From an uncultured Alphaproteobacteria bacterium (GTDB lineage: Bacteria > Pseudomonadota > Alphaproteobacteria > ATCC43930 > CGMCC-115725): a stretch of DNA of 64,000 nt. The notes below the pieces were generated by a model, which saw nothing but the letters and a program-made list of their open reading frames with translations, was not told where the DNA came from and did no database searches. This document shows, in pieces, positions 20,303 through 64,000 of the stretch (its first letter is position 1; every line of letters begins with the position of its first letter). A program made the translations under genes and the position numbers. The stretch is taken from NCBI GenBank assembly GCA_963775525.1, contig CAVZJF010000040.1, positions 4,697 to 68,696 of the forward strand, in the 5' to 3' direction.

Positions 20303-20306
20303 GACG

Positions 20307-20787
20307 ATGGATTTCGAGGCGGTGGTGCGGCGGCTGGAGCTGGAGCAGCTGTACGCCGATTATGTCCACTGCCTCGACGCCGACGAACTCGGAGCGCTGG
20401 CCCGATTTTTTCACCGAGGACTGCTTTTACCGCGTCACCTCGGCGGAGAACTACGAGGCGGGGCTGCCCCTCGGTCTGATCTATGCGACGTCGCGCAACA
20501 TGCTGAAGGACCGGGTCAGCGCCCTGCGCGAGGCCAACATTTACGAGCCGCAGCGCTATCGCCACCTGGTCTCCTCGATCCGGGTCGTCGCCGAGACCGC
20601 GGGGGCCCTCGATGTCGAGGCCAATTTCCTGGTGGTGCGAACCCTGCAGGACGGTGACATGGCGATATTTGCCGCCGGCCGCTATGTCGACCAGATCGTG
20701 CACGACGGCGCCGGCTGGAAATTTGCGCGCAAGCATGTCGTCCTCGACAGCCGCCAGATCGACACCCTGCTGGCCATCCCGATCTGA
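20307..20787 (+). pseudogene. Ring-hydroxylating dioxygenase beta subunit; 1 frame break
   Basis: MDFEAVVRRLELEQLYADYVHCLDADEL shifts near 20390 to ERWPDFFTEDCFYRVTSAENY...LLAIPI. The 575-aa track ORF is an artefactual alpha-beta fusion. Confidence 0.75.
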
Positions 20788-22352: not shown

Positions 22353-24324
22353 ATGCTGGGCAAGCTGACCTGGGCCGCGATCCCGTTTGACGAGCCCATC
22401 CCGATGGGCGCGTCGCTGCTGGTGGTTGTCGTGATTTTGGCCGTTCTGGCCCTGGTCACCTGGAAGGGCTGGTGGCCCTATCTGTGGCGCGAGTGGTTGA
22501 CCAGCGTCGACCACAAGCGGATCGGCGTCATGTACTTCGTGCTCGGGCTGGTCATGCTGGTCCGCGGCTTTACCGACGCGATCATGATGCGCTCGCAACT
22601 GGCGTTCGCGGCGGGCGACGCGAGGGGGTATCTGCCGCCGCAGCACTACGACCAGATTTTCTCGGCGCATGGCACGATCATGATCTTCTTCGTGGCGATG
22701 CCGTTTGTCATCGGCTTGATAAACTTCGTCATGCCATTGCAGCTCGGCGTGCGCGACGTAGCGTTCCCTGTCCTGAACTCGGTAAGTTTTTGGCTGACGG
22801 CAGCCGGAGTGCTGCTGGTCAACGCATCTCTTGTCGTCGGCGAGTTTGCCCGCACCGGCTGGTTGGCGTACCCACCCCTGTCGGAACTCGACTATTCGCC
22901 GGGGGTCGGCGTCGATTATTACCTGTGGTCGCTGCAGATCTCCGGGATCGGCACGCTCTTGACGGGCATCAACTTCGTCACGACGATCCTCAAGCTGCGC
23001 GCTCCGGGCATGATCTACATGCGCATGCCGATCTTCTGCTGGACGGCGCTCGCTTCCAGTCTGTTGATCGTCGCCGCCTTTCCTGTTCTCACGGCCACCT
23101 TCGCGATGCTGCTGCTCGACCGCTATCTCGGGATGCACTTTTTCACGAACGAGATGGGCGGCAACCCGATGATGTACATAAACCTGATCTGGGTCTGGGG
23201 CCATCCGGAGGTTTACATCCTGATTTTGCCGGCATTCGGCGTCTATTCCGAAGTTATCGCTACTTTTTCAAGTAAGTCGCTGTTCGGCTACCGCTCCATG
23301 GTCCTCGCGACGATGGCCATTTGCATTCTGTCCTTTCTGGTCTGGCTCCACCACTTCTTCACCATGGGCGCGGGCGCCGACGTAAACGCGTTTTTCGGCG
23401 TCATGACGATGATCATTGCGATCCCGACCGGCGTTAAAGTGTTCAATTGGCTGTTCACGATGTATGGCGGTCGCGTCCGTTTTTCCACGCCGATCCTGTG
23501 GTCGCTCGGCTTTATAGTCACGTTTGTCATCGGCGGAATGACGGGCGTATTGATGGCCGTGCCGCCGGCCGACTTCGTGCGTCCACAACAGCCTGTTCCT
23601 GGTCGCCCATTTTCACAACGTCATCATCGGCGGCGTCGTGTTCGGCGCGATGGCGGGCTACAATTACTGGTTCCCGAAGGCGTTCGGCTTTACGCTGGAC
23701 GAACGCCTCGGCAAAGCCAGCTTCTGGTGCTGGTTCGTGGGCTTTTATCTTGCCTTCGTGCCGCTCTACGCGCTGGGCCTCATGGGCATGACCCGCCGCA
23801 TGCAGCATTACTCGGAAGTCGGTTGGCAGCCCTTGCTGATCGTCGCCGAGATTGGCGCAATTGTTATTCTCGTGGGCATCGTGCTGATAATCGCGCAATT
23901 GGTGGTCAGCATCCGGACGCGCGAACACCGCCGCGACATTACCGGCGACCCTTGGAACGGCCGGACGCTGGAATGGTCCACGACCTCGCCTCCGCCCGCG
24001 TACAATTTCGCGCTGATGCCCAACGTCGAGTTTGTCGACGCCTATTGGGGCATGAAGCAGCCGGGGAGAAACGCGGTTCAGCCGACCTACGAGGACATCG
24101 AGATGCCGCGCAACAGCGCCACCGGTTTTGTCACCGCGTTTTTTGCCGTGGTGACGGGCTTCTCCCTGATCTGGCATATCTGGTGGATAGCCGTGCTCGG
24201 CCTTCTCGGCGCCGTCGTCACAGCTCTGGTCTTCGCCTGGGGTGACGATCGCGAGGAAGAGATCCCGGCGGCAGAGATCGCACGGATGGAACGCGATCGC
24301 GCGAGGGTGGGGAGCCCGGCGTGA
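22353..24324 (+). pseudogene. cyoB: Cytochrome bo3 ubiquinol oxidase subunit I; 1 frame break
   Basis: Haem-copper oxidase subunit I sequence ([15 protein letters not shown]...). The frame shifts near 23580 to [17 protein letters not shown]... through to the stop at 24324. Confidence 0.9.
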
Positions 24325-24962
24325 CGGCGACAACCGTCGCGGCGACCGCCGACGCCGCGTCTCGTACCGCCGGCGCGCGCGGCCGGGGCTCAGGGGGGCC
24401 GGCCCCGACGCGGGTCGTCGTCGCATACGGGTTTTGGATTTTCCTGCTCAGCGACATCATCATGTTTTCGGCGCTGTTCGCGGCCTACGCGGTCCTGTCG
24501 CCGCGGACCGCCGGGGGACCGAGCGGGCGTGAACTGTTCGACCTACGCCGGGTTTTCGCCGAGACGACATTCCTTCTCTTTTCGAGCTACACCGCCGGGC
24601 TTGGCGCGGTCGCGGTGGAGAACCGGCACGCGCGGAATTTCTACATTTTTGCTGCGCTTACTTTCACGCTCGGGGCCTTGTTTCTCGCATCGGAAATCAG
24701 CGAATTCGCGGGCATGGTGGCGCGAGGGGCCGGTCCGTCGCGCAGCGCCTTTCTGTCGGCTTTTTTCACTCTCGTCGGCACGCACGGAGCCCACGTCACG
24801 GTTGGCCTGCTGTGGCTCACATTCATGGTCGTCCAGGTCGCCTTCAAGGGATTTCGCGCCCACGTGGTTCGGCGTCTGCTGTGCTTCAGCCTGTTCTGGC
24901 ACGCGCTCGACATTATCTGGGTCGCGCTGATGACCATGGTCTATCTTTTCGGGGCGCGCTGA
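24321..24962 (+). CDS. cyoC: Cytochrome bo3 ubiquinol oxidase subunit III
   Basis: Intact 213-aa ORF overlapping the cyoB stop, with typical subunit III transmembrane pattern and operon position. Confidence 0.85.
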   Translation: MTATTVAATADAASRTAGARGRGSGGPAPTRVVVAYGFWIFLLSDIIMFSALFAAYAVLSPRTAGGPSGRELFDLRRVFAETTFLLFSSYTAGLGAVAVENRHARNFYIFAALTFTLGALFLASEISEFAGMVARGAGPSRSAFLSAFFTLVGTHGAHVTVGLLWLTFMVVQVAFKGFRAHVVRRLLCFSLFWHALDIIWVALMTMVYLFGAR

Positions 24963-25351
24963 TGGACGAGCATGGAGAAAGACAATTTCGCTCGGACGAT
25001 CGCGCCCCCGGCGTCGAGCAGGGCGGAACGTCGCTCAACGTCAAGCTCTATACGGCCGGCTTGATTCTCGCGGCGGGGCTCACGCTGACCTCGTTCTGGA
25101 CGGCGGGAACGACCTCGCTTTGGGAACCCGGCGTCACGGTTGGGCTCACGGTGCTCGCAATCGCGCAGATGGGCGTCCACCTCGTCTTCTTCCTGCGCAT
25201 GAGCACCGGGCCCGATCACACCAACAACGTGCTGGCGCTCGCGTTTGGCGTCCTGATCGTAACCTTGGTCATGGCCGGCTCGTTGGTGATCATGGCCAAC
25301 CTCGACGGGAACATGCTGCCGATGCCCAAACTGATGGACATGCAGCGGTAG
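24962..25351 (+). CDS. cyoD: Cytochrome bo3 ubiquinol oxidase subunit IV
   Basis: The ATG overlaps the cyoC stop (TGATG). The product is 129 aa with three hydrophobic spans. Operon position fits. Confidence 0.8.
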   Translation: MDEHGERQFRSDDRAPGVEQGGTSLNVKLYTAGLILAAGLTLTSFWTAGTTSLWEPGVTVGLTVLAIAQMGVHLVFFLRMSTGPDHTNNVLALAFGVLIVTLVMAGSLVIMANLDGNMLPMPKLMDMQR

Positions 25352-26256: not shown

Positions 26257-26517
26257 ATGCACTGGCTGTGGGTCATCATCATCGGGTTTCTGGCGGGGGC
26301 GATCGCCAAGCTGTTCGTGCACGGGCCGGGCGGGTTTATCGTCACGACCTTGCTCGGCATTGTCGGCGCGATCTTCGCGTCGTGGCTCGGGCAGCGCATC
26401 GGCTGGTATCGCGCCGGGCCAGAATGCCGGCTTTATCGGCGCGATCGTCGGCGCGGTGCTGATCCTGGCGATCTACCGGGCGATCTTCGGCAGCCGGCAG
26501 TATCGACGCGCTCTTGA
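26257..26517 (+). pseudogene. GlsB/YeaQ/YmgE family small membrane protein; at least 1 frame break, 3' end unresolved
   Basis: [20 protein letters not shown]...[12 protein letters not shown] shifts near 26418 to [24 protein letters not shown]. That frame then runs without a stop into gyrA. Confidence 0.6.
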
Positions 26518-26694
26518 GGCAGCGGCTCGCCGCTGGGCGCCGGCGAGGCGGCGGGCTACGGTTCGAAAGCGTTTGTTTGCACCGCAAAATGCGGTAATCT
26601 CTGGCCGCGAATACCTATATTATAGAGAGCGGCGCAGCCGCTGCGGCTCGGCCGCGATCTTCAATCTCAGCCAACCATATCCGATCGAGCAGCC

Positions 26695-30068
<3,374 letters not shown>

Positions 30069-32221: not shown

Positions 32222-32720
32222 TGGTCTTCACCTGGCAGGCGACGTAACCGATGCGGAATGGGGCGCGACCCAAGCATTGCTGCCATAGCCGAAGCAGTTG
32301 GCGCGGCCGCGCGCCAACCTCGACGCGGCAAGTCGTCAATGCGATGCCGTATTCATTGACGGCGGGTTGTCGCGGCGGCTGCCAAAAGAATTACCGCCGT
32401 TCTCAGCGGCGCGACGGTTCTCTATCCCTGGCGGAATGCCGAGTCATGCCAGACCATCAATCACTCTCTGATAATGCCGGTGCGCGAGGCGGCTGGCGCG
32501 CCGGGCCGGCCCCGGGGGCGTCGACAGCCAGTGGGCCAAGACCGCCGTGACCGACAGTCCCGGGGTTACAACCCCGGCAGAAGATTGCCTCGAAAGCCAG
32601 AGGACGAGAAGCCGATGAGAATAATACGCCAGGTTCTGCTCATCCCGGGCTTCGCCCGTGCTCATCGCCTTCTCGGAAGCTTCTCGGCCGATGAGACAAC
32701 CAATCAAGATGGGCTCGTCC
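32222..32720 (+). mobile_element. Degenerate IS5-family transposase fragment (N-terminal DUF4096-like part through the first DDE region)
   Basis: Pieces are scattered over the frames: TDAEWGATQALLP-stop, RPRANLD, VVNAMPYSLTAGC, LPKELPP, VDSQWAKT, RGYNPGRR. Together they match the LTDAEW..PLLP...GRPR..D.R.VVNAI.Y.L.TGC.WR.LPK.FPP...IDSQSVKT...RGYDAGKK pattern. There are stops and shifts, and no inverted repeats were identified. Confidence 0.5.
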
Positions 32721-35611
32721 CAAAACCTGCCGAGGTGCGGGCCGAAGAAGCCGAGAGCGCCATGGCGCGGCGCGATTGGCCGGAAGCGATCTCGCGCTGG
32801 AAGGCGATTGTAGAACTGCACGGGACAGGCACGCCCGCCACCGCGCATGCCGCACTGGGCCATGCCAGTCGCCTGCAAGGAGACCTCGCCGGCGCCGAAG
32901 CAGCTATCCGGGGTGGGCTCGCACGGTATCCAAAACACGGCGGCTTGCAGACCGAGCATGCCGAGATCGCCATGGCGCAGCGGGATTGGCCGGAAGCAAT
33001 CTCGCGCTGGCGCTCGATGCTGGCGACACAGGGGAAGAACACCCCAGCCGCCGCTTATGCCCGGCTTACCCGCGCCTATCGCCTTCTGGGAGACTTCGCC
33101 GCCGCCGAGACGGCCATCCGGGACGGGCTCGCGCGATATCCGAAGCATGTCGGTCTGGAGGCCGAACAAGCCGAGATTGCGATGACGCGGCGGGACTGGC
33201 CGGAGGCCATCTCGCGCTGGCGGACGATGGTGGCGACGCATGGTAAGGATGCGCCCGCGGCTGCTCATGCCGGGCTCTGCCGCGCTTATCGGCTGCTCGG
33301 CGACCTCGTCGCCGCCGAGGTCGCCGTGTTGGACGGGCTCGCCCACCACCCCAACCACGCCGGCTTGGGGGTCGAATACGCCGAGATCGCCATGGGGCAG
33401 CGAGACTGGGCGGAAGCGCTCTCGCGCTGGCGGGCTATTGTGCAGACCCACGGAAAAAATTCACCACCCGTCGTACGTGCCAGGCTGCAGGAGGCTGAAA
33501 AAGCCAGTTCAGGGCAGAATTGGCTTTCCCAAATTCCGGCGGGCGTCCGCTGGCAATTGGCGGAAGGGATGTTCGACGTCGAAATCGGCGCGCTCGAGGC
33601 CACGATCGCTCTGGCAAGTCGTCAAGCAACGGCAGTGGCCGAATTGGTCAGCACGTTTGCCGACGCGGAAGGCGCGCTCGCCGGCCACCGGCAACTTTAC
33701 GAGTTGCAGGCCACGACCGAGATCGACGACCTCTCGTCGGAGCTGACGACCGCCTTGCGGCGGATACGCGCGCTCGGCCGTCGAACCGAAACAATGCTGG
33801 GATCCTTCGACGCGATAATCGGACGGTCGGTGCCGACGCCGGCCGGGTCGAGGCAGCATTTTCCGCGCGCCGCATGGCGGGAAGCGATTGTCAAGCTGGC
33901 GCTCGACGTCTATCGCGAGCGTGGCCTCCAGACCTCCCTGTTTTGGCTGTTTCGGGCAGGGCTGGTCGAGGATCGGGCTGTCCTGCTGGCGAATTTCGGC
34001 ACCGCCGTAAGAGAGATCGACCGCGCCGCGGCCGTCCGGGCGTTTTGGCTGGCCTATGGTACGTCGCCGTCGCCGAGCATGGCCGAGAGAATGGCCGGCA
34101 GGATGTATCAGTCAGGCGATCTATCGAATTCCAGTGCGCTCCTCAGGGCCGCGCCGGTAGGCGCATCGACGGCGGTCGCCTCGCCATATGTAAGCGAGAT
34201 GCGCTCGACCGTGGCGATGTTCCAAAGCGGCGTCGAGATACCGGAACGCATCGAACCGAAGCTCGCCGGCAATGCCCGGCGCATCGCCTACGTAGCGTCC
34301 GGGTCATGGCCGTTTCAGGAGGTCGGCTACACCGTCCGGACGCACCGGATGCTGACCGCGCTCGAAGCTGTCGGCGTCGAGTGCGTTTGCTTTACGCGTC
34401 CCGGTTATCCGTGGGATCGGCCCCGAGCGCTGGCGCCGGGCGCTTCCGTCGAGCTCAATCACACCATCGGGACGGTTTCGTATGTACATACGCCGCTGCC
34501 GCACTCGGCGCAGCAGCCGGAGCGCCTTATCCAACAGATGAGCGTTGCGCTCGAAGACCATTTTCGCGCTTCTGGACACACGATCGTGCAGGCCGCGTCC
34601 AATAGTCGAAACGCGCTGCCGGCGCTGATCGCGGCGCGGCGCGTCGGCGCCAAATTCATTTACGAAGTGCGCGGCCTGTGGGAGCTTACGGCGGCATCGC
34701 GCTTTGCCGGATGGGAGGAGACCGAGCGCTACGAGTTTGATCGTCGTCTGGAAGTTCTGGTCGCCTCACATGCCGACCACGTGCTGACGATCACCAACGG
34801 GGTGGCGCAGGAGTTGGTCAAGGGGGGCGTTTCGCCGGAGCGGCTGTCCCTGCTGCCCAATGCCGTCGATCCGGACGCCTTCGAACCTAAGCCGAAGGAT
34901 CAAGGGCTGCTGACCCGGCTCGGTCTCGAGCAGAGCGATTTCACAGCGGTCTATGCCGGCTCGCTTACCGCTTACGAAGGTCTGGATGACCTGATCATCG
35001 CATTGTCGCTTATCCGTCACGAGGGGCTCAGCCCCAAATTCGTGATCGTCGGCGATGGCGAGCAGGCGAAGGAGCTGCGCGCCATCGCCGCCCAACACGA
35101 CATGGCGGATAGCGTTAAGTTTGTCGGCAGAGTACGCCCCGACGAGATTCAAGCTTATCTGTCACTGGCCGATGTCGTCGCGATGCCAAGAAAGCCATAC
35201 CGGGTTTGCGAGATCGTGACCCCGCTGAAGCCGTTCGAGGCGATGAGCATGGAAAAAGCGGTGGTGCTCAGCGACCTGCCGGCTCTCAGAGAGATCGTCA
35301 GCGATGGTGATACCGGGTTGATTTGCAAGCCAGCCGATCCGGCAGATCTGGCGGCGGTGCTGAAGCGCCTGGCCGCCGACCCCGCTCTGCGCACGCGACT
35401 TGGGCGGGAGGCCCGCAAATGGGTGTTGGATCACCACTCGTGGTCGGCGAACGCCGACACCCTCGTGCAGCTGTACCGTTCACTGAGCGGTCTCGCGGCG
35501 CTCCCGAGGGATTATTCGGATGCTTGCGGCCCAGGCAAATACGATCGCCCACCAGAACATGACGCGGTTTACCCTGCCAGAGAAACCAGCGCTTACAACG
35601 TTCAGGCGTGA
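32615..35611 (+). CDS. TPR-repeat protein fused to a GT4-type (group 1) glycosyltransferase
   Basis: Long intact ORF (the track frame starts at 32474). The N-terminus has 3.6 copies of a 70-aa TPR-like unit. The C-terminal ~400 aa resemble GT4 (FIYEVRGLWE...GRVRPDEIQAYLSLADVVAMPRK...PLKPFEAMSMEKAVV). The start is ambiguous (32615 or 32762) because the 5' end overlaps IS-derived sequence. Confidence 0.75.
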   Translation: MRIIRQVLLIPGFARAHRLLGSFSADETTNQDGLVPKPAEVRAEEAESAMARRDWPEAISRWKAIVELHGTGTPATAHAALGHASRLQGDLAGAEAAIRGGLARYPKHGGLQTEHAEIAMAQRDWPEAISRWRSMLATQGKNTPAAAYARLTRAYRLLGDFAAAETAIRDGLARYPKHVGLEAEQAEIAMTRRDWPEAISRWRTMVATHGKDAPAAAHAGLCRAYRLLGDLVAAEVAVLDGLAHHPNHAGLGVEYAEIAMGQRDWAEALSRWRAIVQTHGKNSPPVVRARLQEAEKASSGQNWLSQIPAGVRWQLAEGMFDVEIGALEATIALASRQATAVAELVSTFADAEGALAGHRQLYELQATTEIDDLSSELTTALRRIRALGRRTETMLGSFDAIIGRSVPTPAGSRQHFPRAAWREAIVKLALDVYRERGLQTSLFWLFRAGLVEDRAVLLANFGTAVREIDRAAAVRAFWLAYGTSPSPSMAERMAGRMYQSGDLSNSSALLRAAPVGASTAVASPYVSEMRSTVAMFQSGVEIPERIEPKLAGNARRIAYVASGSWPFQEVGYTVRTHRMLTALEAVGVECVCFTRPGYPWDRPRALAPGASVELNHTIGTVSYVHTPLPHSAQQPERLIQQMSVALEDHFRASGHTIVQAASNSRNALPALIAARRVGAKFIYEVRGLWELTAASRFAGWEETERYEFDRRLEVLVASHADHVLTITNGVAQELVKGGVSPERLSLLPNAVDPDAFEPKPKDQGLLTRLGLEQSDFTAVYAGSLTAYEGLDDLIIALSLIRHEGLSPKFVIVGDGEQAKELRAIAAQHDMADSVKFVGRVRPDEIQAYLSLADVVAMPRKPYRVCEIVTPLKPFEAMSMEKAVVLSDLPALREIVSDGDTGLICKPADPADLAAVLKRLAADPALRTRLGREARKWVLDHHSWSANADTLVQLYRSLSGLAALPRDYSDACGPGKYDRPPEHDAVYPARETSAYNVQA
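32740..33500 (+). repeat. 210-bp (70-aa) tandem coding repeat, ~3.6 units
   Basis: The GCCATGGCGC(G/A)GCG(C/G)GA(T/C)TGGCCGGAAGC motif recurs at 210-nt spacing. Internal ATGs are at 32762, 32972, 33182 and 33392. Confidence 0.8.
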
Positions 35612-35684: not shown

Positions 35685-36959
35685 TCAAAGATGGCGGTGG
35701 TCGCGCAATGCGGCAACAACCAAGCTGCCGACCAGATAAGCTAGAGAGGCGGCCGCTAACACGAGTAGAACATTGCGAACTGCTCGCGGTTCAGTAGCCT
35801 CTTGCGGTGTTGTCGGCTTGATGAAATCGACAAGATACGTGTGCTGGCGCAGCGTCGCAGCGCGGGCTGAATTGAGCAAGGACAGCGCCGAGGTGTATAT
35901 TGCTTGGGACAATTGCTGCTCCAGCAACAAATTTTCATATTGGCCGAGCAGGCTCGCATAGTTCTTGTTGCCTTCCACCCCCGCCAGCAAGCCGCGGTCG
36001 GACCGCATCTGCTTTTCAAGAGCGGCGATCCAGGACTGGAGCCCCTGCACCACCGGGGTGTCAGGACGCGCGTAGGAAAGCGCGGCTTGGAGCTGGGCCC
36101 GGGCGCTGGACAGTTGGCCGAATGTCGTCCCGGCTACGGTCCCGACCGCGCCGGCCGTCGCGGGAGGGTCGATATCGCCATGGGCGTTGCGAAAATCCCT
36201 GATTTTGTTGTCGACGGCAGCAAGGCGCTGCTCCGCTCGCGCCACTTCGGAGCGAGCGAAATTCAGTAAATCCTCGCGCATCTGCCGGTAGGCGTCATTG
36301 AGCTTTTGTTGACCGAGTTGGACCAGGGTTTGCGCGATAAGCTGTGCATCGGCGGGGCTGAAAGCTTGGACCTGCACCTTGAGGACCGGATCAGACTGAT
36401 CCGAAGTGACAGCTACGTGATGCTGATAATAGCGCTGGAAGCGCTCGACCGACGCATTGACGGGCAACCGTGAGAACAAGTCGATCGAGCCTGCGTTCCA
36501 CATCTTGCGCAGACCGATCGCGTGGTCAGCGGCGAGCATCGCCTCGTTGGATTGCAAATAGTTCTGAACCATCTCCTGATCGGCGTTCGCGTCGCCGCCG
36601 CCGGAATTGTCGACCAACGACAACAGCGAAGACGCCGAGGAGCCGGAAGAGGCTGCTTTACCTAGCGCGGGAAGACCGCCGCCCGATCCGGAATCGGAAT
36701 TAAGGATCATCTGGGTTTCGGAGACATAACGGTCGCTGGCGATGAAGGCGTAATACAGCCCGGCGACCAGGGTCGGTAGTCCAACGCACAGCGCCAGTGC
36801 AGCGAACCGCCGGCGCTGCCGGGCCCGGCGGTCGTCGTAAAGCGTAGGAACCGGGCGTGTGATGGTCCCAACGATCAGCGCATCGGCGTGCCGCGGAGCC
36901 GGCGTCGGATTGTCGCCGCGGACGAGAATCCGCGGGCGACCGAGACCGCGAAGTTTCAT
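35685..36959 (-). CDS. kpsE: Capsule polysaccharide export inner-membrane protein, KpsE/CtrB family
   Basis: Intact 424-aa ORF. N-terminal transmembrane segment followed by FIASDRYVSETQMIL, a long coiled periplasmic region, and a C-terminal transmembrane segment ending AALRDHRHL (compare E. coli KpsE ...VIEDHRD). Confidence 0.8.
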   Translation of the reverse strand: MKLRGLGRPRILVRGDNPTPAPRHADALIVGTITRPVPTLYDDRRARQRRRFAALALCVGLPTLVAGLYYAFIASDRYVSETQMILNSDSGSGGGLPALGKAASSGSSASSLLSLVDNSGGGDANADQEMVQNYLQSNEAMLAADHAIGLRKMWNAGSIDLFSRLPVNASVERFQRYYQHHVAVTSDQSDPVLKVQVQAFSPADAQLIAQTLVQLGQQKLNDAYRQMREDLLNFARSEVARAEQRLAAVDNKIRDFRNAHGDIDPPATAGAVGTVAGTTFGQLSSARAQLQAALSYARPDTPVVQGLQSWIAALEKQMRSDRGLLAGVEGNKNYASLLGQYENLLLEQQLSQAIYTSALSLLNSARAATLRQHTYLVDFIKPTTPQEATEPRAVRNVLLVLAAASLAYLVGSLVVAALRDHRHL

Positions 36960-37162
36960 GACTACGATCCACGGCAGTAGAAATTCGCCACCTTATCAAT
37001 GCCGACAAGTAGCCTCAGATATCCGCGGCGAAGAACCATGCCTGCGTCGCAGTATTTATTAGAAAGGGTGGCGGTCAGTCGAGATGGCCGGCGAAGCAGC
37101 AAACAACAGGGTCCCGTCGGCCGACCGCGTCCAATGGCGCTTCGACCCCTCCGCCAGATAGT

Positions 37163-39013
37163 TCACGGCGCTATCACATAGCGCCGGGTCGATCGAACCA
37201 CCACCATCATCAGCGCGAGGCCGACGAAGACGAAGGTCAAGGGATAATGCCAATTCGCATAACGCGAGCGGTAGGACGCGAAAAATCCATCCCGCACGAA
37301 CTCGATCAAATGCAACAGCGGGTTGAACAGTGCAAAAAAACGCATTCGCGGCGGAAGCATGTTGGCATAATAAAAGGCGCCGGAAAAGAAAAACATAAGA
37401 CGAAAAAAAATTGTCTCGACCACCGCCAGACCAGGAATTACCAACTGCCCCAGGCCAAATAAAGTGCCGACGACCATTCCCAGAATGCTGATGCAGGTCA
37501 GCGCCGCCAACATGGTCAGCGGATCGTTGAGCTGCAGCGAGCCCTGATAGAGAGAAAGGCCGGCGACGATCAGCACGAGCACGACAAGACTAGTAAGGTA
37601 TTGCAGCAGGGAGCTCGCCAAGATGAGCAGCAAAGGCGTCACTTGTCGAAAATAGAGAAAATTCAGATTTGACCGAACCGCGCTGCTCGCGGCGGCCTGG
37701 ACGCGGAGATAGAAGCAGAAGAACGGGACAATCCCGGCCACGAGGAACGCTATTGTTGGCGTATTGTAAGGCTCGCGGCGGCCCGCCATCGCGTACACGA
37801 CACTGAGTGCGCCAACATATGCCAGCGGCTGGGCGATCGCCCATAAATATCCGATCCCGCTGTGATGATGGCCGGTCAGCAAATCGCGCACCATTATCGT
37901 GCGAAGGGTGCTGACAAAGCCAACGGCTGCGGCTCTTAGGCTCGGCCGGCGCTCGAGCGCCGGGTCGTCGAAGCGCGGTGCGAATTCGTTCGGGATGGCA
38001 ATCGAGCTGATCTCGGGCATGCCGGCATCGCCGTCCATCGGCCGACCGAGCTCCTGCTCCAACGACAGGATCGCCGATTTTAGACCAGGCACATCGGCGT
38101 TGGTGCGAAACGCTCTGGCCAAGGCAATTTCCGCCTGTTCGCCATTGCCGATCGCAAGGTATATGCGGCCCAGCTCGAGAAACGTGACGGCGTCGAGCGG
38201 GTCGAGACCAACGACAATCTTAAACAGGGCCAACGCTTCGTCGGTCTGACCGGTTTTGAACAGGGCCAATGCGCAAAGCCTGGCCGCAAAGCGGTAGATG
38301 TCGGAATATTCCGGGATCGCTTGCAGCTGCTCGATTGCTTCCTCGCAGCGGCCGAGCCGGATCAACACGTCGCCGAGCATCAGTCGCGCGGCGCTGTTGT
38401 CGGCGGCCAGCGCCACCGCCTGCTCGAAATATTGCGCCGCGATATCGAGATTTTTCATCCGCTCATGGGCTATGCCCAGCCGGGACCACAAGGCCGCGAC
38501 ACCCCCGCCGACGAAATAGTCCCGTTCGGTCTCTGCCGCCGCGCGATCGAGGACGGCTTCCATATCGCGCACGCCCTGTCTGTCGCCGTAGCGCGCGAAA
38601 CGGCAATTAGCTTCGAGATAGATCGCCAGCGGGTCGTCAGGAACGGCGGCCAGGGCTGCGCTCAGCCAATCGTCGGCATCCTCCGCTTTTTCCTCTCGCA
38701 GAAAGTAATCGCCTACCCGGAGCCGAACCTCCTGCGCGGCGGCGGCCGGCAGCAGCGCGTCGAGCCCGCCGACAAGCGCCTCGACTCGGTGATACAATGA
38801 CTGGCTGCGATTGGGATTATGCGCGGATATATCGGCCAACGCATCGACGGCGTCATCGAAATTTCGCACCATTACCTGGGTCACCGCCCACAGGACGCGC
38901 GCCCTCGGCGCCGTACCCTGCTTGCCCGCGCCGAGCACTGTGAGGATTCGATCCGCTTGCTCGTAGGCCCCGAGACGGAGGGCGGCAACCGCCCGATCGA
39001 CCTCGTCCACCAT
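37163..39013 (-). CDS. kpsM: ABC-2 type polysaccharide export permease (KpsM-like) with a ~350-aa N-terminal TPR domain
   Basis: The C-terminal ~260 aa are colinear with KpsM (GIGYLWAIAQPL...FNPLLHLIEFVRDGFF...). The N-terminal half has multiple TPR-like helix pairs. A start at 39013 follows AAGGGGGA; the track ORF extends to 39109. Confidence 0.75.
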   Translation of the reverse strand: MVDEVDRAVAALRLGAYEQADRILTVLGAGKQGTAPRARVLWAVTQVMVRNFDDAVDALADISAHNPNRSQSLYHRVEALVGGLDALLPAAAAQEVRLRVGDYFLREEKAEDADDWLSAALAAVPDDPLAIYLEANCRFARYGDRQGVRDMEAVLDRAAAETERDYFVGGGVAALWSRLGIAHERMKNLDIAAQYFEQAVALAADNSAARLMLGDVLIRLGRCEEAIEQLQAIPEYSDIYRFAARLCALALFKTGQTDEALALFKIVVGLDPLDAVTFLELGRIYLAIGNGEQAEIALARAFRTNADVPGLKSAILSLEQELGRPMDGDAGMPEISSIAIPNEFAPRFDDPALERRPSLRAAAVGFVSTLRTIMVRDLLTGHHHSGIGYLWAIAQPLAYVGALSVVYAMAGRREPYNTPTIAFLVAGIVPFFCFYLRVQAAASSAVRSNLNFLYFRQVTPLLLILASSLLQYLTSLVVLVLIVAGLSLYQGSLQLNDPLTMLAALTCISILGMVVGTLFGLGQLVIPGLAVVETIFFRLMFFFSGAFYYANMLPPRMRFFALFNPLLHLIEFVRDGFFASYRSRYANWHYPLTFVFVGLALMMVVVRSTRRYVIAP

Positions 39014-39245
39014 CGTCCCCCTTCGCCGCGGCGAGGCTGTATGCGCGCGCCCAGGATAATTTACAAGAAGGCGCTCTGAGGCTGGGCAAGAATCCCGGCG
39101 CATCGACAACGTGCGTGCTTCAAGACACGCTTCGGCTGCGCCGGAGCGCTCCGCGGAATTGGTTGCGATCGAAATCAGTTGCGGAGCGGCGTCCGAGACG
39201 GAGAATCACGCCTAATTAATTGGGAAATCCGAGGAATGTCGGATA

Positions 39246-42200
39246 ATGAGGGCGCTTTCGGAGACGGCGGCCACGGCGCTTGGAATAGGTTCTATGTCAC
39301 CCGACGAAGAAGTAGAGGCTCAAGGCGCTAAAAACATTACCCTCGAAAACATGATTTCCTATTCGGGTGATGCGCCGGCGTCGCTCGAGACGTTCGACCT
39401 TGCCCTGTTCAAGCGGCTCAATGCGGAGTTCGCCGCCGCTCCCCTTGTCCCCGCCCCGCGCGAGCAAAATACCGCTACACGACCGAGATCGGCCGCAGGC
39501 GCGGCAAGATGCTGGAGCGCAAGATCGGGATCGATCACCTGCGCGTGATCGAGGTCGGTTGCGGCGACGGCATGCTGTCGCGGCTGCTGGCGCGCGAGCA
39601 TTCCTGTGAGGTCGTGGGTGTCGACGTGTGCGTCTATGACGATTGGACAGCGCCCGCGGAGGGCGATCTGACCTATCTCGTCCACGACATCAGCACCGGT
39701 GACAATGCTGCGCTCGGCCTCTTCGATCGCGTCGTCTCCTTTGCCGTCTTCGAGCACATCGTGCATCCGCATGGCGCGCTGAAGGCTGTCTACGACCTGC
39801 TGAAGCCCAACGGCAAGGCTTACATCTATGCCAATCTCTATCGCGGCGCGAAAGCGTCGCATCGCTATCGCGAGGTATCTTTTCCTTGGCCGCACCTGTT
39901 GTTTCAAGCCTCGGTCTGGCAGGAGTTCTACATCGAGCTTTTCGGGGAGCCGATGCAGGCGGCCTGGGTCAACAAGCTGACCTATGACCAATACGTCAAC
40001 ATGGCGCAGCGCGTCGGCTTCAGGATTGTCGAGCATTTTCCATCCGCACCGTATTTCAACGAGGACTTTTACCGGCGGTTCGAATACGAGCTCGCGGCCT
40101 ATCCTAAATTCGACCTGATGCACGATTTCATTCATCTCGTGCTCGAAAAGCCCGGCGCGGCCGTCGAGCCGATGCGCGATCGACGCTCGCTTTTGGACTA
40201 CCCACCGCAAAGGAGGGACGACGAGGAAACCTATGCCAGGCTGTTCTGGCGCAGCGTTAGGGCTGAGAGCCCCGATTGGCTGGGTTACGAAGCGCGTTGG
40301 CGGCAATCGCGCCGGAACGCAGCGACCGCGATCGACGACGGCCAACCTTGGGTCACCTATCCCGCGATCGATTTTCTCGAGCGGCATCTGACCGCGCGCC
40401 ATCGCGTGTTCGAATGGGGCTCGGGCGGCTCGACCTTGTTCTTCGCCGCACGGGCTGGCGAGGTGATTTCGGTCGAGCATGATCGCGGCTGGTTCGAAAA
40501 GGTTCGGGACCGCATCGCGGCGAAGCCCAATGTTTCCCATCGGCTGATCGAGCCGGTCGAGGAATTGCCTGGTGAGGAATTGGCTGGCGAGGAATTGCCC
40601 GGGAGCTGGCGCTACAGTTCGGGTGCGCGCGGCTGCGAGGGCCTGAGCTTTCAGGCCTATGTCAAAGCGATCGAGGCGCAGGACGACGCCTCGCTTGATC
40701 TCGTTGTCGTCGACGGCCGCTCGCGGATGGGCTGCGTGTCGGCCGCTGCCGCCAAAGTCGCGCACGGTGGCTGGCTGTTGCTCGACAACGCCAATTATCC
40801 GCGGTACCGCGAACGGCTGGACGAGCTGCGGGACGGCGTTTTGCAGGGCTGGCGCGAAATCGGTCTCGCCGGCCCCGGCCCCTATTCGCGCACGCCTTGC
40901 TGGGAAACCGTGATCTGGGAGCGCCCGCGCGAGGCGGCGCGAGCGGTGTCGGGACATGCCGCCGCCCTCCGGCAAGCCTTGGCGAAATTGCCGGTACGGC
41001 CCTACGACCGCGAGCTCGCGGGAGAGATTTTGGAAATCGGCGGGTTCGAATTTGAGCTTGGAGAGCGATTTAGCTGGGAAGACCATGCGGAATCTCCCCG
41101 TAGCCGAAGCTTGTTTCTACAATCATGGCACCCGCTGGAGCCACTTTTTATAGATTATGCCGAAAATCAGGATCCGAACGTATTGCAGTCTATTTGCCAG
41201 AAAGTTTGCGGGTGGCTCGCGCTCTTTGGCAATGTTCCGCTTGCTCGTCCTCCTCGAGACACGGCCGAGCATCCAGGCGTTTTCATTGCTGCCGATACTG
41301 CGATCGGTAGTCGCTTCTACCGCCTGGCCTATCTGGTCGCTGCGACAGCGACCGTCACCGCGATCGACGACGCGATCTTCGAAGAGCTGCTCGGCGCCCT
41401 GCTCGCTCACCGCCTCGCCCTTGCACTCGATGAAAATTTTGCGCCTCATTCGAATCATGGCGTGCTGCAGGCGCTGGCGCAGGTCTGCGGAGCTTTCCGC
41501 TTTCTGACGCTCGAAGATCCCTTTGCGTCGATGCTCGGCATGGCGGAGGCCTATGATCAGGGTAAACATCGCCTGATTGCCGTGCTCAGCGCACAGGTCT
41601 GCGCCGATGGCGTTCATCGCGAGCACTCGCCGATGTACCACGTCATTGTGACGAATGCCCTCGAGTGGATCGTGACCCAAGGTATCGTTACTGACGCCTC
41701 CTTGCTCGATATCGCCGGTCGAATGCAGGCAGCAGCCTGGTGGATGTTTGATTCCCGCGGCCGCATCGCCAACCTGGGCGATTCCGATCTCGAGCCCGAC
41801 CTGACTTGCGACGCCCGCGGTGCTGACCGCGCCTCGCCGCAGGCGCCGGCACATGCCGTGTTTCCCGAAGGCGGCTATTGGTTTGTAAAGGGACCGGGCG
41901 TCTTTCTCGCGCAAACGGCGGCGTTCCATTCGCGCGTTCACAAGCAGGCCGACACATGCGCTTTTCTCTGGCGCGACCGCGGTCTGGATATCCTGATCGA
42001 TGCCGGCCGCTTTGGTTACGTCGGGCGCACGGCGCCGGGAGAGCCTGCCTTTCAAGAGGGGTTCTGGTACGCGGACGCGAGGCGGCGCTATGTCGAGTCG
42101 ACGAATGCCCATAACACCCTCTGCGTCGATCGGCGCAATCACCCGCGCTCGCGCAGCCAGTCCTTCGGGTCGGGGATCGTGGCCGCCGTCGAGCGCGATC

Positions 42201-42762
42201 GCGTATTTGCCTGCGAGTCCAGCATCCAGAATTTGCCGCGGCTGACCCATATGCGCGTACTGGCGCTGAAGCCGGGGGAGTGGTTGCTCTGCATCGACAC
42301 CGTTCGCGCCCGCGACGGCTTGTCCCATCTGGCGACGCAGAATTTCCATCTGCATCCTGCTTGGAATCTGGAGCGGCAGGGCGAGAGCAACGCTCTCTTC
42401 GGGCACGCTTCCGGGGCCACCTTGGTTATGACGTGCATGTTTGAAGGTGCGCGCGTCAGCGATATGGCGCGCGGGCGCGGCGTGCCCGAAAGGGACGATC
42501 CCGACGAGCTGTTCGGCTGGTGGTCACCCCGCCATATGCATTCGAACCCTGCGAAGCGATCAGCGTGAGCGCGGAGGGCAGTTACGTTACCCTCGCTACG
42601 CTATTCACGTTCGGCGATGTCGAGATTGACCGCGCGTTCACGAGTTTCAACACGACAAGGCGGCGTCTGCGCTTCCGCTGGAGGGGGCCTGAGGGCACGC
42701 AGACGCTGACGCTTGACCGTGACAATGTCGCGGCCGGCCAAAGCCGGCTGGCGATCCTGTAG
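39246..42762 (+). pseudogene. Tri-domain protein: class I SAM methyltransferase + second methyltransferase-fold domain + heparinase II/III-like domain; probably 2 frame breaks at the extreme ends
   Basis: The core is a 1019-aa intact ORF (39509-42568) with VIEVGCGDG...FEHIVHP, then VFEWGSGGSTLFFA...VVDGRSR, then HSNHG...EHSPMYH...NAHNTL. The upstream frame (FDLALFKRLNAEFAAAPLVPAPREQN) joins near 39470. The downstream frame (YAFEPCEAISVSAEG...) joins near 42530. Confidence 0.65.
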
Positions 42763-43557: not shown

Positions 43558-44505
43558 ATGACGGAAGGTGCGCAGAGGACAAGGTTCACGGCAGGACCGC
43601 TGACGTTCGTCGTCAGACATGAACTGTGGGACGGCAACATCCACGATCACGCCGACCAGGGTGTCTCGATCGCAGTAGCGGCGGATGTCGCCGGCAAAGA
43701 GACGACGCTGTTGCGGTTTAACTGCTTCGACCAGGAAAAAAGCTACGTCTACGGGCCGGAAAATCATGATCAGGCAGGATCGACGACGCCGGGTGACCTG
43801 CCCGAAACCCTGAGCGGGTCGGTCAAGCTCTACCGAATGGACCCGATCGCCGACGGCAACCCGATCGGCTGGACGACCCGGACGCTGGAGAAGAAGCTGC
43901 CGAAGATGCTGGAGCGAGCCGGCTACCCGCAAATCGCCGCGGCGACCGATCTCACCGAGGCGCGGCGCGTCCTGCCCGAGGTCGAAGCCTGCGCCAGGGA
44001 ATTGTTCGCCGCCAAGCGCAACACCGTAAAGCATAACCGCGGCACGGACATCTTCGATGCCGGGAATATCCGGTTCGGGCTCGAGATGCGGCGGCAGGCT
44101 GGGGGAGACGGCGGGCTCGCCGTCCATGTCCTGACGGATGTCGGCGGGTCGATGGGGAAAGCTTATGTCGAAGAAACCGAGATCCTTGCCTTCGACTGTT
44201 TCTGGCAATTCCCGCATTACCACTACGGCCCGCGCAACAAGAATCACCGCATTTTTTGGGACAAGACCCTGGTCGAGGATCCGCTCGGCTGGGTGTTCGA
44301 CCAGTTCGAGAACCGAAAACTGGGGCTCATGATCGAGCGGGCGGGTTACCCGGGAGTCGCGGCCGATCTCGACCTCGAAAAAATCGCCTCCCTTCTGCCG
44401 GTGGTAAAGCAGAAGGCGCGCGAGATGCAGGCGGAAGGCGAGAGACTGACCGGCCACCCGGGGTTGCCGTTGGAGCCGACCCCGAACCTGGCCGGCGGCG
44501 GCTAA
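43558..44505 (+). CDS. Unknown protein, 315 aa, made of two homologous ~150-aa halves
   Basis: Intact ORF. LLRFNCFDQEKSYVYGPEN...GWTTRTLEKKLPKMLERAGYPQIA is mirrored by ILAFDCFWQFPHYHYGPRN...GWVFDQFENRKLGLMIERAGYPGVA. Confidence 0.6.
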   Translation: MTEGAQRTRFTAGPLTFVVRHELWDGNIHDHADQGVSIAVAADVAGKETTLLRFNCFDQEKSYVYGPENHDQAGSTTPGDLPETLSGSVKLYRMDPIADGNPIGWTTRTLEKKLPKMLERAGYPQIAAATDLTEARRVLPEVEACARELFAAKRNTVKHNRGTDIFDAGNIRFGLEMRRQAGGDGGLAVHVLTDVGGSMGKAYVEETEILAFDCFWQFPHYHYGPRNKNHRIFWDKTLVEDPLGWVFDQFENRKLGLMIERAGYPGVAADLDLEKIASLLPVVKQKAREMQAEGERLTGHPGLPLEPTPNLAGGG

Positions 44506-44699
44506 AGCGCACAAGCCCGCACGCAGGCGGGTGCGGCGCCCGGTCGCCCGCCTGCGGTGCGCTGGCGCGACCGCGGGGTGCACTCTGCGCACTCCCCCGG
44601 CGTCGCGTGGCTCGCGGTAGCGGGTTGCCGAGTTGGCTGGTATACCATATACCATGCGGGATGCGCGAACCCGGCCCGCGACCAAGCCCCACCCTCGAC

Positions 44700-45401
44700 A
44701 TGCCGCGGCTCGACACCGGCGCCAGCTTTCGCAAGGAAGCCTATGCGGCGTTGAAGCGGGCGATCACCGCGATGGACATCTACAACCATCCGCAGGAGAT
44801 CCGGCTCGACGAGCGGCGGCTCTCGGAGGGGCTGGGCGTCAGCCGCACGCCGATCCGCGAGGCGATGACACTGCTTGAGCAGGAGGGCTTTGTCCGCACC
44901 CGGCCGCGCCGCGGCATCTATGTCGTGCGCAAGTCGAAGCGCGAGATCGTCGAGACGATCACGGTCATGGCGGCGCTCGAAAGCATGGCGGCGCGGCTCG
45001 CCGCCGAGCGCGCCGCCGACGCGGAAATCGCCGAATTGCGCCGGCTGATGGATGCGTTCCACAATGGGCCGGATGGACAAACAGAGGGCGGCGAGCGGCT
45101 CGAGGAATATTCCGACGCCAACATTGCTTTCCACCAGGCGATCATCCGCATGAGCGGCTCCGCGCTGCTCGCCGAGATGACCGAAAACCTGTTCATCCAC
45201 ATGCGCGCGATCCGCAAGATCACGATCCACCAGGACAACCGGGCGGCGCGCTCGATTGCCGACCACATGCGGATCATCGAGGCGCTCGAACGCCGTGACC
45301 CGGAACTTGCCGAGCGGCTGGCGCGCGAGCACACCTTGGGGCTCGCAGCACACGTCGAAGAGCACGGCGATTTTCTCGACGCGACGCGCGACGATGTTTA
45401 G
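44700..45401 (+). CDS. GntR family transcriptional regulator (FadR/FCD subfamily)
   Basis: Winged helix-turn-helix (LSEGLGVSRTPIREAMTLLEQEGFV) followed by an all-helical FCD-like C-terminal domain. Alternative starts lie upstream in the same frame. Confidence 0.85.
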   Translation: MPRLDTGASFRKEAYAALKRAITAMDIYNHPQEIRLDERRLSEGLGVSRTPIREAMTLLEQEGFVRTRPRRGIYVVRKSKREIVETITVMAALESMAARLAAERAADAEIAELRRLMDAFHNGPDGQTEGGERLEEYSDANIAFHQAIIRMSGSALLAEMTENLFIHMRAIRKITIHQDNRAARSIADHMRIIEALERRDPELAERLAREHTLGLAAHVEEHGDFLDATRDDV

Positions 45402-45471
45402 GATTTTTATCAAGCCTCCGATCGTCACCCTTGCGCTAGCAGGGGTCCCGGGCGACCCCTATGCTCCTGCC

Positions 45472-45502
45472 GCCCTGGGCTCCCGCTTTCGCGGGAATGA
45501 CG
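45472..45502. repeat. REP family A copy (inverted orientation)
   Basis: The reverse complement CGTCATTCCCGCGAAAGCGGGAGCCCAGGGC differs by 1 nt from the 5586 copy. Confidence 0.75.
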
Positions 45503-45533
45503 TTGAGGAGCAGTCGAGCTCGGGAAAGAAACG

Positions 45534-46763
45534 ATGAGCAAAGCGCTGGAAGGTGTCCGCATCCTCGATTTCGGCCATGTCCAGGCGGGGCCGACCGCGA
45601 CCCAGCTGTTGGCGTGGATGGGTGCGGACGTGATCAAGATCGAGATGCCGGGGCGCGGCGACATCACCCGCGGCCAGTTGCAGGACGTGAAGGGCGCCGA
45701 CAGCCTCTATTTCACGATGCTGAACTCGAACAAGCGCAGCATCACGGTAAATTTGAAGGCGGCGGGCGGCCGCAAGATAATCGAGGATTTGGTCAGGCGC
45801 TGCGACGTGATCCTGGAAAATTTCGGGCCCGGCGTGCTCGACCGCCAAGGCTTCACCTGGGAGCGCTTCCAGGAACTGAACCCGCGCGTCATCTACGCCT
45901 CGATCAAGGGCTTTGGCCCCGGCCCCTTTGTCGACTGCAAGGCTTATGAGAACGTCGCGCAGTGCATGGGCGGCTCGGCCAGCACGACCGGCTGGGACGA
46001 CGGGCCGCCGACGGTGACCGGCGCCCAGATCGGCGACAGCGGCACCGGGGTGCACACCGTCGCCGGCATCCTCGCCGCCCTCTTCCAGCGCGAGCGCACC
46101 GGCAAGGGCCAGCGCGTCGAGGTGGCGATGACCGACGCCGTATTGAACCTCTGCCGGGTCAAGATGCGCGACCAGCAGCGGGTCATGAAGGGGCCGCTGC
46201 CGGAATACCCGAACAAGGAATTCGGCGACGCCGTGCCGCGCGCCGGCAACGCGTCGGGCGGCGGCCAGCCGGGGGCGGCGCTGCGCTGCGCTCCGGGCGG
46301 CGACAACGACTGGGTCTACGTGATCATCCAGCCGCCGTGCTGGGAGCCGCTGATGAAGCTCGCCGGCCGCGACGAGCTGATCACCGATCCCGCTTACGCG
46401 ACCCCGCAGGCGCGCCTGCCCAAGATCCCCGAATGCTTCTCGCTCATCGAAAAATGGACGATGACCAAGACCAAGTTCGAGGTCATGGCGGCGCTTAACG
46501 AGGTCGACGTGCCGTGCGGCCCGATCCTGTCGATGAAGGACATCTACGAGGACAAGTCGCTCTACGAGCGCGGCTACCTCGTCGAGCTCGACCATCCGAC
46601 GCGCGGCCGCTACGTGCAGGTCGGCTCGCCGATCAACCTCTCGGACTCGCCGGTCGAGGTCAAGCGCTCGCCGCTGTTGGGCGAGCACACCGACGAGGTC
46701 CTCGGTTGGCTCGGCTACGGCGCGGACGAGATCGAGAAATTGCGCGCGGAAAAGGCGGTTTAG
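45534..46763 (+). CDS. frc: Formyl-CoA transferase (formyl-CoA:oxalate CoA-transferase)
   Basis: Intact 409-aa ORF, closely colinear with Oxalobacter Frc as I remember it ([10 protein letters not shown]...[12 protein letters not shown]...[10 protein letters not shown]...[11 protein letters not shown]). Confidence 0.9.
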
Positions 46764-60979: not shown

Positions 60980-61033
60980 CCGCGCCGGCATCGGCGCGCA
61001 GGCGACGGCGCGACGGTCGAGGGCGGGCGGACG

Positions 61034-62042: not shown

Positions 62043-62098
62043 ATTATGGGGTGCAGTAATTTTCGTCGTTCCAGAGCCGATTCCAATCGACATAGACC

Positions 62099-62140
62099 CG
62101 TCGTCCCCGCGAAAGCGGGGACCCAGAGCCCGCCCCTGGC
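62099..62140. repeat. REP family A copy
   Basis: CGTCGTCCCCGCGAAAGCGGGGACCCAGAGCC is related to the 5586 and 45472 copies. Confidence 0.65.
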
Positions 62141-62259
62141 TTGAACAAGGGGCCAGTCCCTGCGTCCCGCTTTGGCGCACGGGGTGACGAGGAGGGAGCA
62201 AATGGGCTTGCCGTCAATCGGGCTCTGGTCCGCGCGGGAAATCGGAAGCCCGTTCTGAC

Positions 62260-63108: not shown

Positions 63109-63121
63109 AATCGAAAGGAGC

Positions 63122-63151
63122 AAGACATGGAAACGCAAGACATGGAAACGC
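63122..63151 (+). repeat. Perfect 15-bp tandem duplication (AAGACATGGAAACGC x2) spanning a start codon
   Basis: Read directly. It creates METQDMET at the head of the SDR ORF. Confidence 0.9.
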
Positions 63152-63938: not shown

Positions 63939-64000
63939 CCGCGAATTCGGCGAGCAATTCCGGCGGTCGCGCGAAGGCCGTTTCGACAGCGGCCGAGCGC

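Follow-up and report, generated by a model that had tools for sequence, protein, structure and literature searches.

A conserved fusion of a tetratricopeptide repeat array to a KpsM-type ABC-2 permease in Alphaproteobacteria, and an old loss of the adjoining kpsT gene in one lineage

The group 2 capsule exporter KpsMT-KpsE(-KpsD), known from Escherichia coli K1/K5 and from the S. thermodepolymerans structure 8tsh (PMC11041684), is among the described systems closest to the one reported here. The chain of the solved KpsM opens with an amphipathic interface helix, which is cytosolic and located at the entrance of the canyon (PMC11041684). In the Vi antigen system (Salmonella Typhi, Bordetella, Achromobacter) the tetratricopeptide repeats (TPRs) of TviD bind TviE, a family 4 glycosyltransferase (GT4), and mediate membrane association, and VexE bears 10 N-terminal TPRs; this work points to a protected synthesis-export complex held together by TPR proteins, whose direct link to the transporter was not shown (PMC8760489). 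TPR arrays also act as protein-protein scaffolds in polysaccharide secretion in BcsC, PelB, PgaA and AlgK, which belong to synthase-dependent exopolysaccharide systems (PMC8760489; PMC12220298). We describe a gene in which such an array is covalently joined to a KpsM-type permease of the ATP-binding cassette (ABC) class ABC-2. It lies in a 64,000-nucleotide stretch (contig CAVZJF010000040.1, positions 4,697 to 68,696; hereafter the window) from an uncultured alphaproteobacterium. The gene, referred to as TPR-kpsM, and the parts of its product are as follows (window coordinates; aa, amino acids):

37163-39013, minus strand: TPR-kpsM coding sequence, 616 aa plus stop, delimited by the list of open reading frames (ORFs), translation, homologue starts, Pfam and about 48 full-length homologues
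38048-39013, minus strand: N-terminal TPR solenoid, aa 1-322, about 18 helices, by AlphaFold2 (AF2), Foldseek, hydropathy and family alignment
37940-38047, minus strand: conserved linker, aa 323-358, motif MDxDAGxP...IPxEFxPRxDDPAL, by alignment, with low model confidence
37166-37939, minus strand: KpsM-type ABC-2 transmembrane domain, aa 359-616, interface helix and six membrane helices, by profile and Foldseek

The gene product is a genuine single-chain fusion of a TPR solenoid of about 320 aa, a conserved linker and a KpsM-fold ABC-2 permease. Pfam search of the ORF detected TPR_19 (E 3e-20), TPR_16 (E 2e-15) and further TPR families, and ABC2_membrane (PF01061) at ORF residues 403-610 with 40.0 bits against a cut-off of 26.9, covering positions 4-211 of the 211-position profile. 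An AF2 model built from the family alignment had a mean predicted local distance difference test (pLDDT) score of 86.7, with residues 1-322 modelled as helical repeats and 359-613 as a domain of KpsM fold. A first-pass annotation, made from the letters and the ORF translations, had proposed this fusion. The homologues, Pfam, AF2 with Foldseek and the ratio of nonsynonymous (dN) to synonymous (dS) substitution rates bear the proposal out: the fusion is real, conserved and under selection. That annotation had placed the start at 39109, and the minus-strand ORF 37163-39109 does encode 648 aa when read from TTG, but alignment with 44 homologues, which start at the same Met or Val, identifies the ATG at 39013 as the true start of a 616-aa protein. 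A plus-strand reading of 37163-39109 was dropped, as it contained stops throughout, which puts the gene on the minus strand. The G+C content of the window is 65%; that of the gene at the three codon positions (0.66/0.44/0.71) is coding-like, its third-position value (GC3) being below that of core genes (about 0.85-0.90).

The C-terminal 258 aa share the fold of KpsM, a stand-alone protein of about 260 aa. The family profile aligned colinearly with the KpsM chain 8tsh_C (profile 362-610 with chain residues 20-268, E 7e-26), which confirms the colinearity noticed at first pass, and the single sequence matched the same chain with E 2e-21. In the AF2 model the domain has the amphipathic interface helix and the six membrane helices and can be superposed on 8tsh_C with a TM-score of 0.89 and a root-mean-square deviation of 2.6 A (26% identity, 262 columns). 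With the KpsM model NF050053 the match (E 4e-20) reached 72.9 bits, short of the equivalog cut-off of 300, and with the VexB model of the Vi system 61 bits against a cut-off of 297. Judged by these scores, the permease is a homologue of KpsM and not an equivalog. It also differs from KpsM in length, having 616 aa of which 358 are extra residues at the N-terminus. A conserved loop, NLNFLYFRQVTP (aa 449-460), lies between the second and third membrane helices of the model and is unaltered in the window. From general ABC-exporter architecture this loop, which is not named in PMC11041684, would contact the ATPase.

Repeated helix-turn-helix pairs forming a solenoid, as expected of a TPR domain, make up aa 1-322. 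The pLDDT values were mostly 87-96 across these helices, and Foldseek with the N-terminal half matched consensus TPR proteins and the TPR domains or superhelices of OGT and SPINDLY. Before about aa 390 the hydropathy profile contains just one marginal 19-residue peak (1.67), which falls within a TPR helix. Since KpsM begins with a cytosolic interface helix, the TPR domain would be placed in the cytoplasm, beside the canyon entrance, where substrate enters, and the ATPase. The TPR domain and the linker are conserved across the family to the same degree as the membrane domain, and the 57 invariant columns of the homologue alignment are spread over both the N-terminal and the membrane halves. The linker is acidic and proline-rich, has low pLDDT values (58-67) and includes the invariant residues D327, D329, A330, G331, P333, P341 and F344. 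Its core, LGR...(I/V/L)PxxF(R/Q)(P/L), lies about 25 residues ahead of the interface helix; it persists in fused permeases of about 30% identity and is absent from the plain KpsM proteins compared. This distribution points to a single old fusion event and to a functional linker, which looks like a short linear docking motif.

The fusion is not confined to the window. About 48 full-length homologues (cluster representatives) of 614-631 aa, with 48-79% identity, all contained TPR and ABC2_membrane domains. A HMMER search of 1.84 billion representatives clustered at 50% identity gave 20,277 matches; at least 47 of the best 150 representatives were proteins of 527-1100 aa with a C-terminal KpsM domain, and in all ten long representatives scanned the TPRs preceded ABC2_membrane. 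One of these ten (P0071) is a 727-aa Dongia sp. RefSeq entry named "ABC transporter permease" (WP_395022698.1). Genome matches of the family were found in metagenome-assembled genomes (MAGs) and bins of Microflora Danica and in "Stellaceae" (Allostellaceae, Rhodospirillales). Among the GTDB species representatives the best match was just 78% identical, which shows that the genome of the window is not one of them. The TPR-KpsM family is thus conserved and widespread in MAGs of soil Alphaproteobacteria, and the initial impression of an unusual architecture does not hold. Dozens of independent assemblies (ENA, JGI, NCBI, Logan) contain the fusion, and relative to two assemblies about 98% identical to the window, a long-read ENA contig (L001) and, out of a different metagenome, a JGI contig of 7.4 kb (L026), the permease gene contains no indels. 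A fusion created by a missed stop or an indel, a caveat attached to the original proposal, is ruled out by the homologues, the equal conservation of the N-terminal part and the indel-free gene. Of the other caveat, that the architecture might be common and already characterised, the first half proved true and the second did not: no paper on a TPR-KpsM or ABC-2 fusion was found in the full-text literature searched. Names given automatically to family members are inconsistent ("tetratricopeptide repeat protein", "ABC transporter permease", "capsular polysaccharide transport system permease").

The gene following on the same strand was predicted at first pass to be kpsE, and this was confirmed:

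35685-36959, minus strand: kpsE, 424 aa, a polysaccharide co-polymerase of class 3 (PCP-3) forming a cage around KpsMT, by TIGR01010 and 8tsh_E

Its product matched TIGR01010 (BexC/CtrB/KpsE) with E 5e-68 (230 bits, cut-off 437) and 8tsh_E with E 1e-35 over residues 58-422. The permease therefore has a KpsE partner in its operon. Related loci with flanks of 8-10 kb came from assemblies in ENA, JGI, NCBI and Logan, and some of them are duplicate contigs. In all 18 loci among L002-L020 other than L005, a gene for a 215-221-aa ABC_tran protein, kpsT, begins at or overlaps the permease stop. Next comes kpsE (416-431 aa) in 13 of them; in L002-L004, L017 and L018 kpsT is present and no kpsE is nearby. 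Two distant loci, L027 and L028 (32-36% identity), have the same permease-kpsT-kpsE triad. The normal operon of the family is TPR-kpsM, kpsT, kpsE. The suggestion that this exporter is built without a neighbouring ATPase finds no support: outside L005, kpsT stands directly downstream in the relatives, and the window holds its decayed remnant (see below). L006, L010, L011, L014, L015 and L020 have a Poly_export (KpsD-like) gene upstream, and L019 and L027 have one nearby. A gene of the UDP-GlcNAc 2-epimerase family, upstream in several loci, and GT4 glycosyltransferase genes are often near the operon. In L007 (11848-13758) and L016, kpsT and kpsE were called as one 636-aa product, which is either a real fusion or a frameshift in a long-read assembly.

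L005 alone among the other loci fetched lacks both kpsT and kpsE. Its permease gene (10001-11848, product P0006, 72% identical) is an intact orphan TPR-kpsM flanked by genes for a Crp-family regulator and a major facilitator superfamily (MFS) transporter, and no kpsT or kpsE remnants were detected beside it even at E <= 1. This is a second, independent case of a permease retained without a neighbouring ATPase.

Between the stop of the permease gene and the start of kpsE the window has 203 nt (36960-37162), which hold both ends of kpsT:

36965-37166, minus strand: kpsT pseudogene remnant, 5' piece 37071-37166 and 3' piece 36965-37060, by tblastn and blastn

With five family KpsT proteins as queries, tblastn aligned the 5' piece with KpsT aa 1-32 (E 5e-5) and the 3' piece with aa 186-217 (E 8e-8). 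Both pieces lie on the same strand, in colinear order, precisely in the interval from kpsM to kpsE. By blastn both ends are 74% identical to kpsT of the closely related locus L012, with about 463 nt missing between them. The missing residues, 33-185, include the Walker A motif (GRNGAGKST, about residues 38-46 in relatives), and, given the general layout of ABC ATPases, the signature and Walker B motifs should have been among them too. The 5' piece runs into a TAA codon, the pieces are mutually out of frame, and the deletion junction reads ...CCACCCTTTCTAATAAATAC.... No cognate KpsT gene therefore adjoins the permease in the window.

The same remnant is present in L001, one indel and one substitution apart, and in L026, which encodes the exact permease of the window; the deletion is identical in the three assemblies, which differ by about 1.5% elsewhere. 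At the protein level the remnant is 53% identical to KpsT, compared with 88-97% among intact orthologues of the same clade. Its dN was 0.28 and its omega 0.30, as opposed to 0.02-0.08 and 0.03-0.10, respectively, for intact kpsT over the same 64 codons and with comparable dS. Because the remnant has decayed to this extent the loss must be old, and because the decayed remnant recurs in independent assemblies an assembly artefact as the cause of the missing ATPase is ruled out. These observations show that the window lineage lost kpsT long ago by an internal deletion of about 460 nt. The absence of a partner ATPase, which had drawn attention to the locus, is less surprising in this light, since it reflects a gene lost in one lineage and not the design of the exporter.

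The genes left behind have not been released from selection. Between the window and L001 the permease gene differs by 9 synonymous and 1 nonsynonymous substitutions (dN/dS 0.037) and kpsE by 9 and 4 (dN/dS 0.15). Over the three assemblies 15 permease codons are variable, 14 synonymously and 1 nonsynonymously (binomial P = 5e-8 under neutrality). Since sequencing errors would be mostly nonsynonymous, these differences are genuine and reflect purifying selection. The window permease and a sister that has kpsT are each 73% identical to P0007, which shows no acceleration of the rate. Both the permease and kpsE are still under purifying selection despite the old loss of kpsT. Divergence between the window and L001 is uneven along the sequence: dS was 0.02-0.03 over the exporter genes (35685-39013) and 0.06-0.12 in flanking housekeeping genes (flanks 43558-46763), and the region of parC is just 94% identical. 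Such a pattern points to recombination, or to a recent sweep, of the exporter locus among strains.

Two large genes adjoin the exporter genes in the window:

32474-35611, plus strand: TPR and GT4 glycosyltransferase (TPR-GT), convergent, 1045-aa ORF (called as 998 aa in L001), by Pfam and TIGR04063
39246-42764, plus strand: S-adenosylmethionine-dependent methyltransferase and heparinase II/III-like protein, divergent from the permease, by Methyltransf_23 and Hepar_II_III_C

TPR-GT has Pfam TPRs at about aa 90-260 together with Glyco_transf_4 and Glycos_transf_1 and matched TIGR04063 with E 3e-80. The methyltransferase/heparinase protein is intact in L001 (6250-9768) and L026 (438-3971), where it has 1172-1177 aa; in the window single-base indels at 39472 and 42539 cut the gene to an ORF of 1019 aa (39509-42568). 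Its dN/dS (window and L001) was 0.23. A methyltransferase joined to a polysaccharide lyase-like domain is an unusual pairing, and it does not occur beside the permease genes of the closest relatives.

The other window genes scanned are metabolic (formate-tetrahydrofolate ligase, MFS transporters, quinol or cytochrome oxidase, parC, formate dehydrogenase, CcmF). No intact gene for an ABC ATPase turned up in the 64 kb. Scanning all six frames for Walker A gave two matches, in frames not taken as coding, and a hidden ATPase elsewhere in the window was rejected after six-frame Walker A and signature scans and tblastn gave nothing credible. Capsule_synth (PF05159; the beta-Kdo linker transferases KpsC/KpsS) was detected neither among the scanned window ORFs nor in the gene lists of the relatives within 8-10 kb. 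The statement of the first-pass annotation that the window has no kpsT, kpsD or kpsC/kpsS therefore stands as regards functional genes, on the Walker A scan, tblastn and Pfam search of the scanned ORFs. Two ORFs, 10618-13635 (1005 aa) and 14173-15651 (492 aa, GC3 0.89), had no Pfam match at E <= 1e-4. At 58000-64000 the G+C content is 0.72-0.73 and tangled overlapping ORFs with PfkB-kinase and NAD-epimerase fragments are found, which may be frameshifted sugar-nucleotide genes. A 575-aa ORF at 19060-20787 (plus strand) with Rieske, Ring_hydroxyl_A and Ring_hydroxyl_B would be a fusion of the alpha and beta subunits of a ring-hydroxylating oxygenase, which are normally separate. Relative to L001, parC (26360-29528) is split by single-base indels into three ORFs in the window, and the oxidase subunit genes (22353-25351) are in overlapping frames, in a stretch outside the L001 alignment. 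The window probably derives from a long-read assembly with residual indel errors, and ORF lengths outside the permease gene need care.

Comparison with described systems shows which features of the locus are shared and which are not. With the group 2 capsule exporter the relatives have in common the order kpsM-kpsT-kpsE and the KpsE partner, and the logic of a type V ABC exporter applies. The differences are the 358 additional N-terminal residues, the low identity to KpsM (26%; 73 bits as against 300), the lack of a kpsC/kpsS match in the window or in the relatives' flanks looked up and, in the window, the deletion of kpsT. The likeness to the Vi system lies in an ABC transporter-dependent polymer, a GT4 enzyme and cytoplasmic TPRs that organise the machinery. 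Of the NCBIfam Vi models, VexB matched the permease with E 1e-16, VexD matched among the window proteins with E 4e-27 (95 as against 905 bits), VexC matched the family KpsT of L012 with E 4e-27 (95 as against 313 bits), and VexE matched the permease TPRs weakly (E 1e-4, 21 as against 1200 bits). All these scores fall far short of the equivalog cut-offs, orthologues of TviB/C/D or VexE were not identified here, and the Vi system carries its TPRs on an acetyltransferase and an acyltransferase and none on its permease. With no kpsC/kpsS match recorded in the loci looked up, and with GT4 enzymes predominating, the family system looks nearer to Vi antigen-type or other ABC-dependent exopolysaccharide systems lacking 3-deoxy-D-manno-octulosonic acid (non-Kdo systems) than to the classical group 2 capsule.

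In the Wzm-Wzt O-antigen transporters a carbohydrate-binding beta-sandwich is fused to the C-terminus of the Wzt ATPase. These too are type V ABC-2 exporters with an extra cytoplasmic domain on a transporter subunit that links the status of substrate or biosynthesis to export; here, however, what is added is a TPR array, at the N-terminus of the permease. The TPRs of BcsC, PelB, PgaA and AlgK are periplasmic and link an inner-membrane synthase to an outer-membrane porin, unlike the present ones, which are cytoplasmic and carried by an ABC permease. The family profile also matched, through the TPRs, the TagF-like polymerase Cps3D (8qoy_A, E 2e-11). As in this group 2 capsule polymerase, the TPRs are within a cytoplasmic component of an ABC-dependent capsule pathway, but in Cps3D they belong to the polymerase and not to the exporter. 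What is new is thus the covalent joining of a TPR array to an ABC-2 permease through a hallmark linker; the permease, ATPase, KpsE and TPR parts are of known kinds.

Taking these results together, we hold with moderate confidence that TPR-KpsM, KpsT and KpsE form a conserved exporter family whose TPR domain serves as a dock, that kpsT was deleted from the locus in the window lineage, and that KpsT is supplied from elsewhere. The TPR domain would most probably be a docking platform, at the entrance of the canyon, for enzymes that make or modify the polymer (GT4s, some of them TPR-bearing); alternatively its cargo may be the lipid-linked nascent chain, tethered to the exporter. Tethering by such a platform would couple synthesis to export. 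In the window lineage the permease would pair with a KpsT encoded elsewhere in the genome, and sharing of this kind would be made easier by the high conservation of KpsT in the family, as KpsT proteins are 75-97% identical where the permeases of the same loci are 49-79% identical. Several observations weigh against this reading. That the permease probably still works with KpsT acting in trans is purely inferred, and tblastn with the five family KpsT proteins found in the window the remnant alone. No Poly_export (KpsD/OPX) gene was detected in the Pfam-scanned window ORFs, the stretches 10.6-16 kb and 58-64 kb being largely unannotated, or within 8-10 kb in the closest relatives (L008, L012, L013). 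The permease TPRs showed no specific similarity to those of the neighbouring glycosyltransferase (best E 0.31), and the sequences thus give no hint of a dedicated TPR-TPR pair. TPR-GT had a dN/dS of 0.37 (window and L001), higher than that of the permease. Of 164 columns highly conserved in the family, finally, the window permease deviates at 9, as opposed to 2-4 in close kpsT-bearing relatives, which hints at some relaxation of constraint. These departures include the otherwise invariant L264 and G417; seven are in the TPR domain, and the other two, G417N and S419P, fall in the first periplasmic loop. P0006, the orphan permease of L005, departs at 8 of 165 conserved columns.

The excess of departures in the window permease and the dN/dS of TPR-GT, together with the deletion of kpsT and the failure to find KpsD in the scanned 64 kb, would be expected if the exporter had died with kpsT and TPR-kpsM and kpsE were pseudogenes in waiting. 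We consider such a relic quite unlikely: the deletion is old, judging by the dN of the remnant, but three assemblies all have an unbroken permease ORF, its variation is almost entirely synonymous, its rate is not accelerated, and the dN/dS of kpsE is low as well. The same long-lasting purifying selection can be read in favour of a role of TPR-KpsM and KpsE that does not depend on an ATPase, such as a membrane scaffold organising TPR-GT and modifying enzymes or a passive glycolipid-binding platform, for which kpsT would be dispensable; the intact orphan in L005, with neither kpsT, kpsE nor remnants of them, is also consistent with it. This role appears doubtful to a similar degree, as kpsT adjoins the permease in 17 of 18 other loci, its start usually overlapping or abutting the permease stop, and as the loop that would contact the ATPase is unaltered in the window. 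We know of no ABC-2 permease that acts without a nucleotide-binding domain (NBD). In its specific form, in which TPR-KpsM with its KpsE cage would be selectable without any ABC ATPase and would serve TPR-GT and the methyltransferase/heparinase-like enzyme, the idea is very unlikely; if true, at least two lineages, the window clade and that of the L005 orphan, would have exapted an ABC-2 permease for a task that needs no NBD.

A different function of the TPRs would be that of a dimerisation or regulatory module, holding the KpsM protomers together or gating the canyon or the ATPase, with the linker possibly bound in the TPR groove. KpsM protomers barely touch each other (PMC11041684), the linker motif is conserved yet modelled with low confidence, as expected of a peptide ligand, and the TPR domain stays conserved while the repertoire of glycosyltransferases varies between loci. 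We nevertheless regard this function as rather unlikely, since plain KpsM works without such a module and the Vi antigen precedent favours docking between enzymes. As to an assembly or sequencing artefact behind the fusion or the missing ATPase, the window is not free of errors, the indels relative to L001 that split parC and truncate the methyltransferase/heparinase gene being examples. None of them is in the permease gene, however, the fusion recurs in dozens of assemblies and the deletion in three, and decay of a remnant is not made by assembly, which leaves an artefact extremely improbable.

The TPR-KpsM family merits a family model of its own, for which the linker LGR...(I/V/L)PxxF(R/Q)(P/L) could be the hallmark. 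For the study of how polymer synthesis is physically coupled to export in ABC-dependent capsule and exopolysaccharide pathways, a TPR platform covalently attached at the cytosolic mouth of the canyon is a natural and tractable system. The selection that persisted in the window lineage after the loss of the ATPase gene in cis amounts to a natural experiment, and it raises the question whether ATPases are shared between paralogous exporters.

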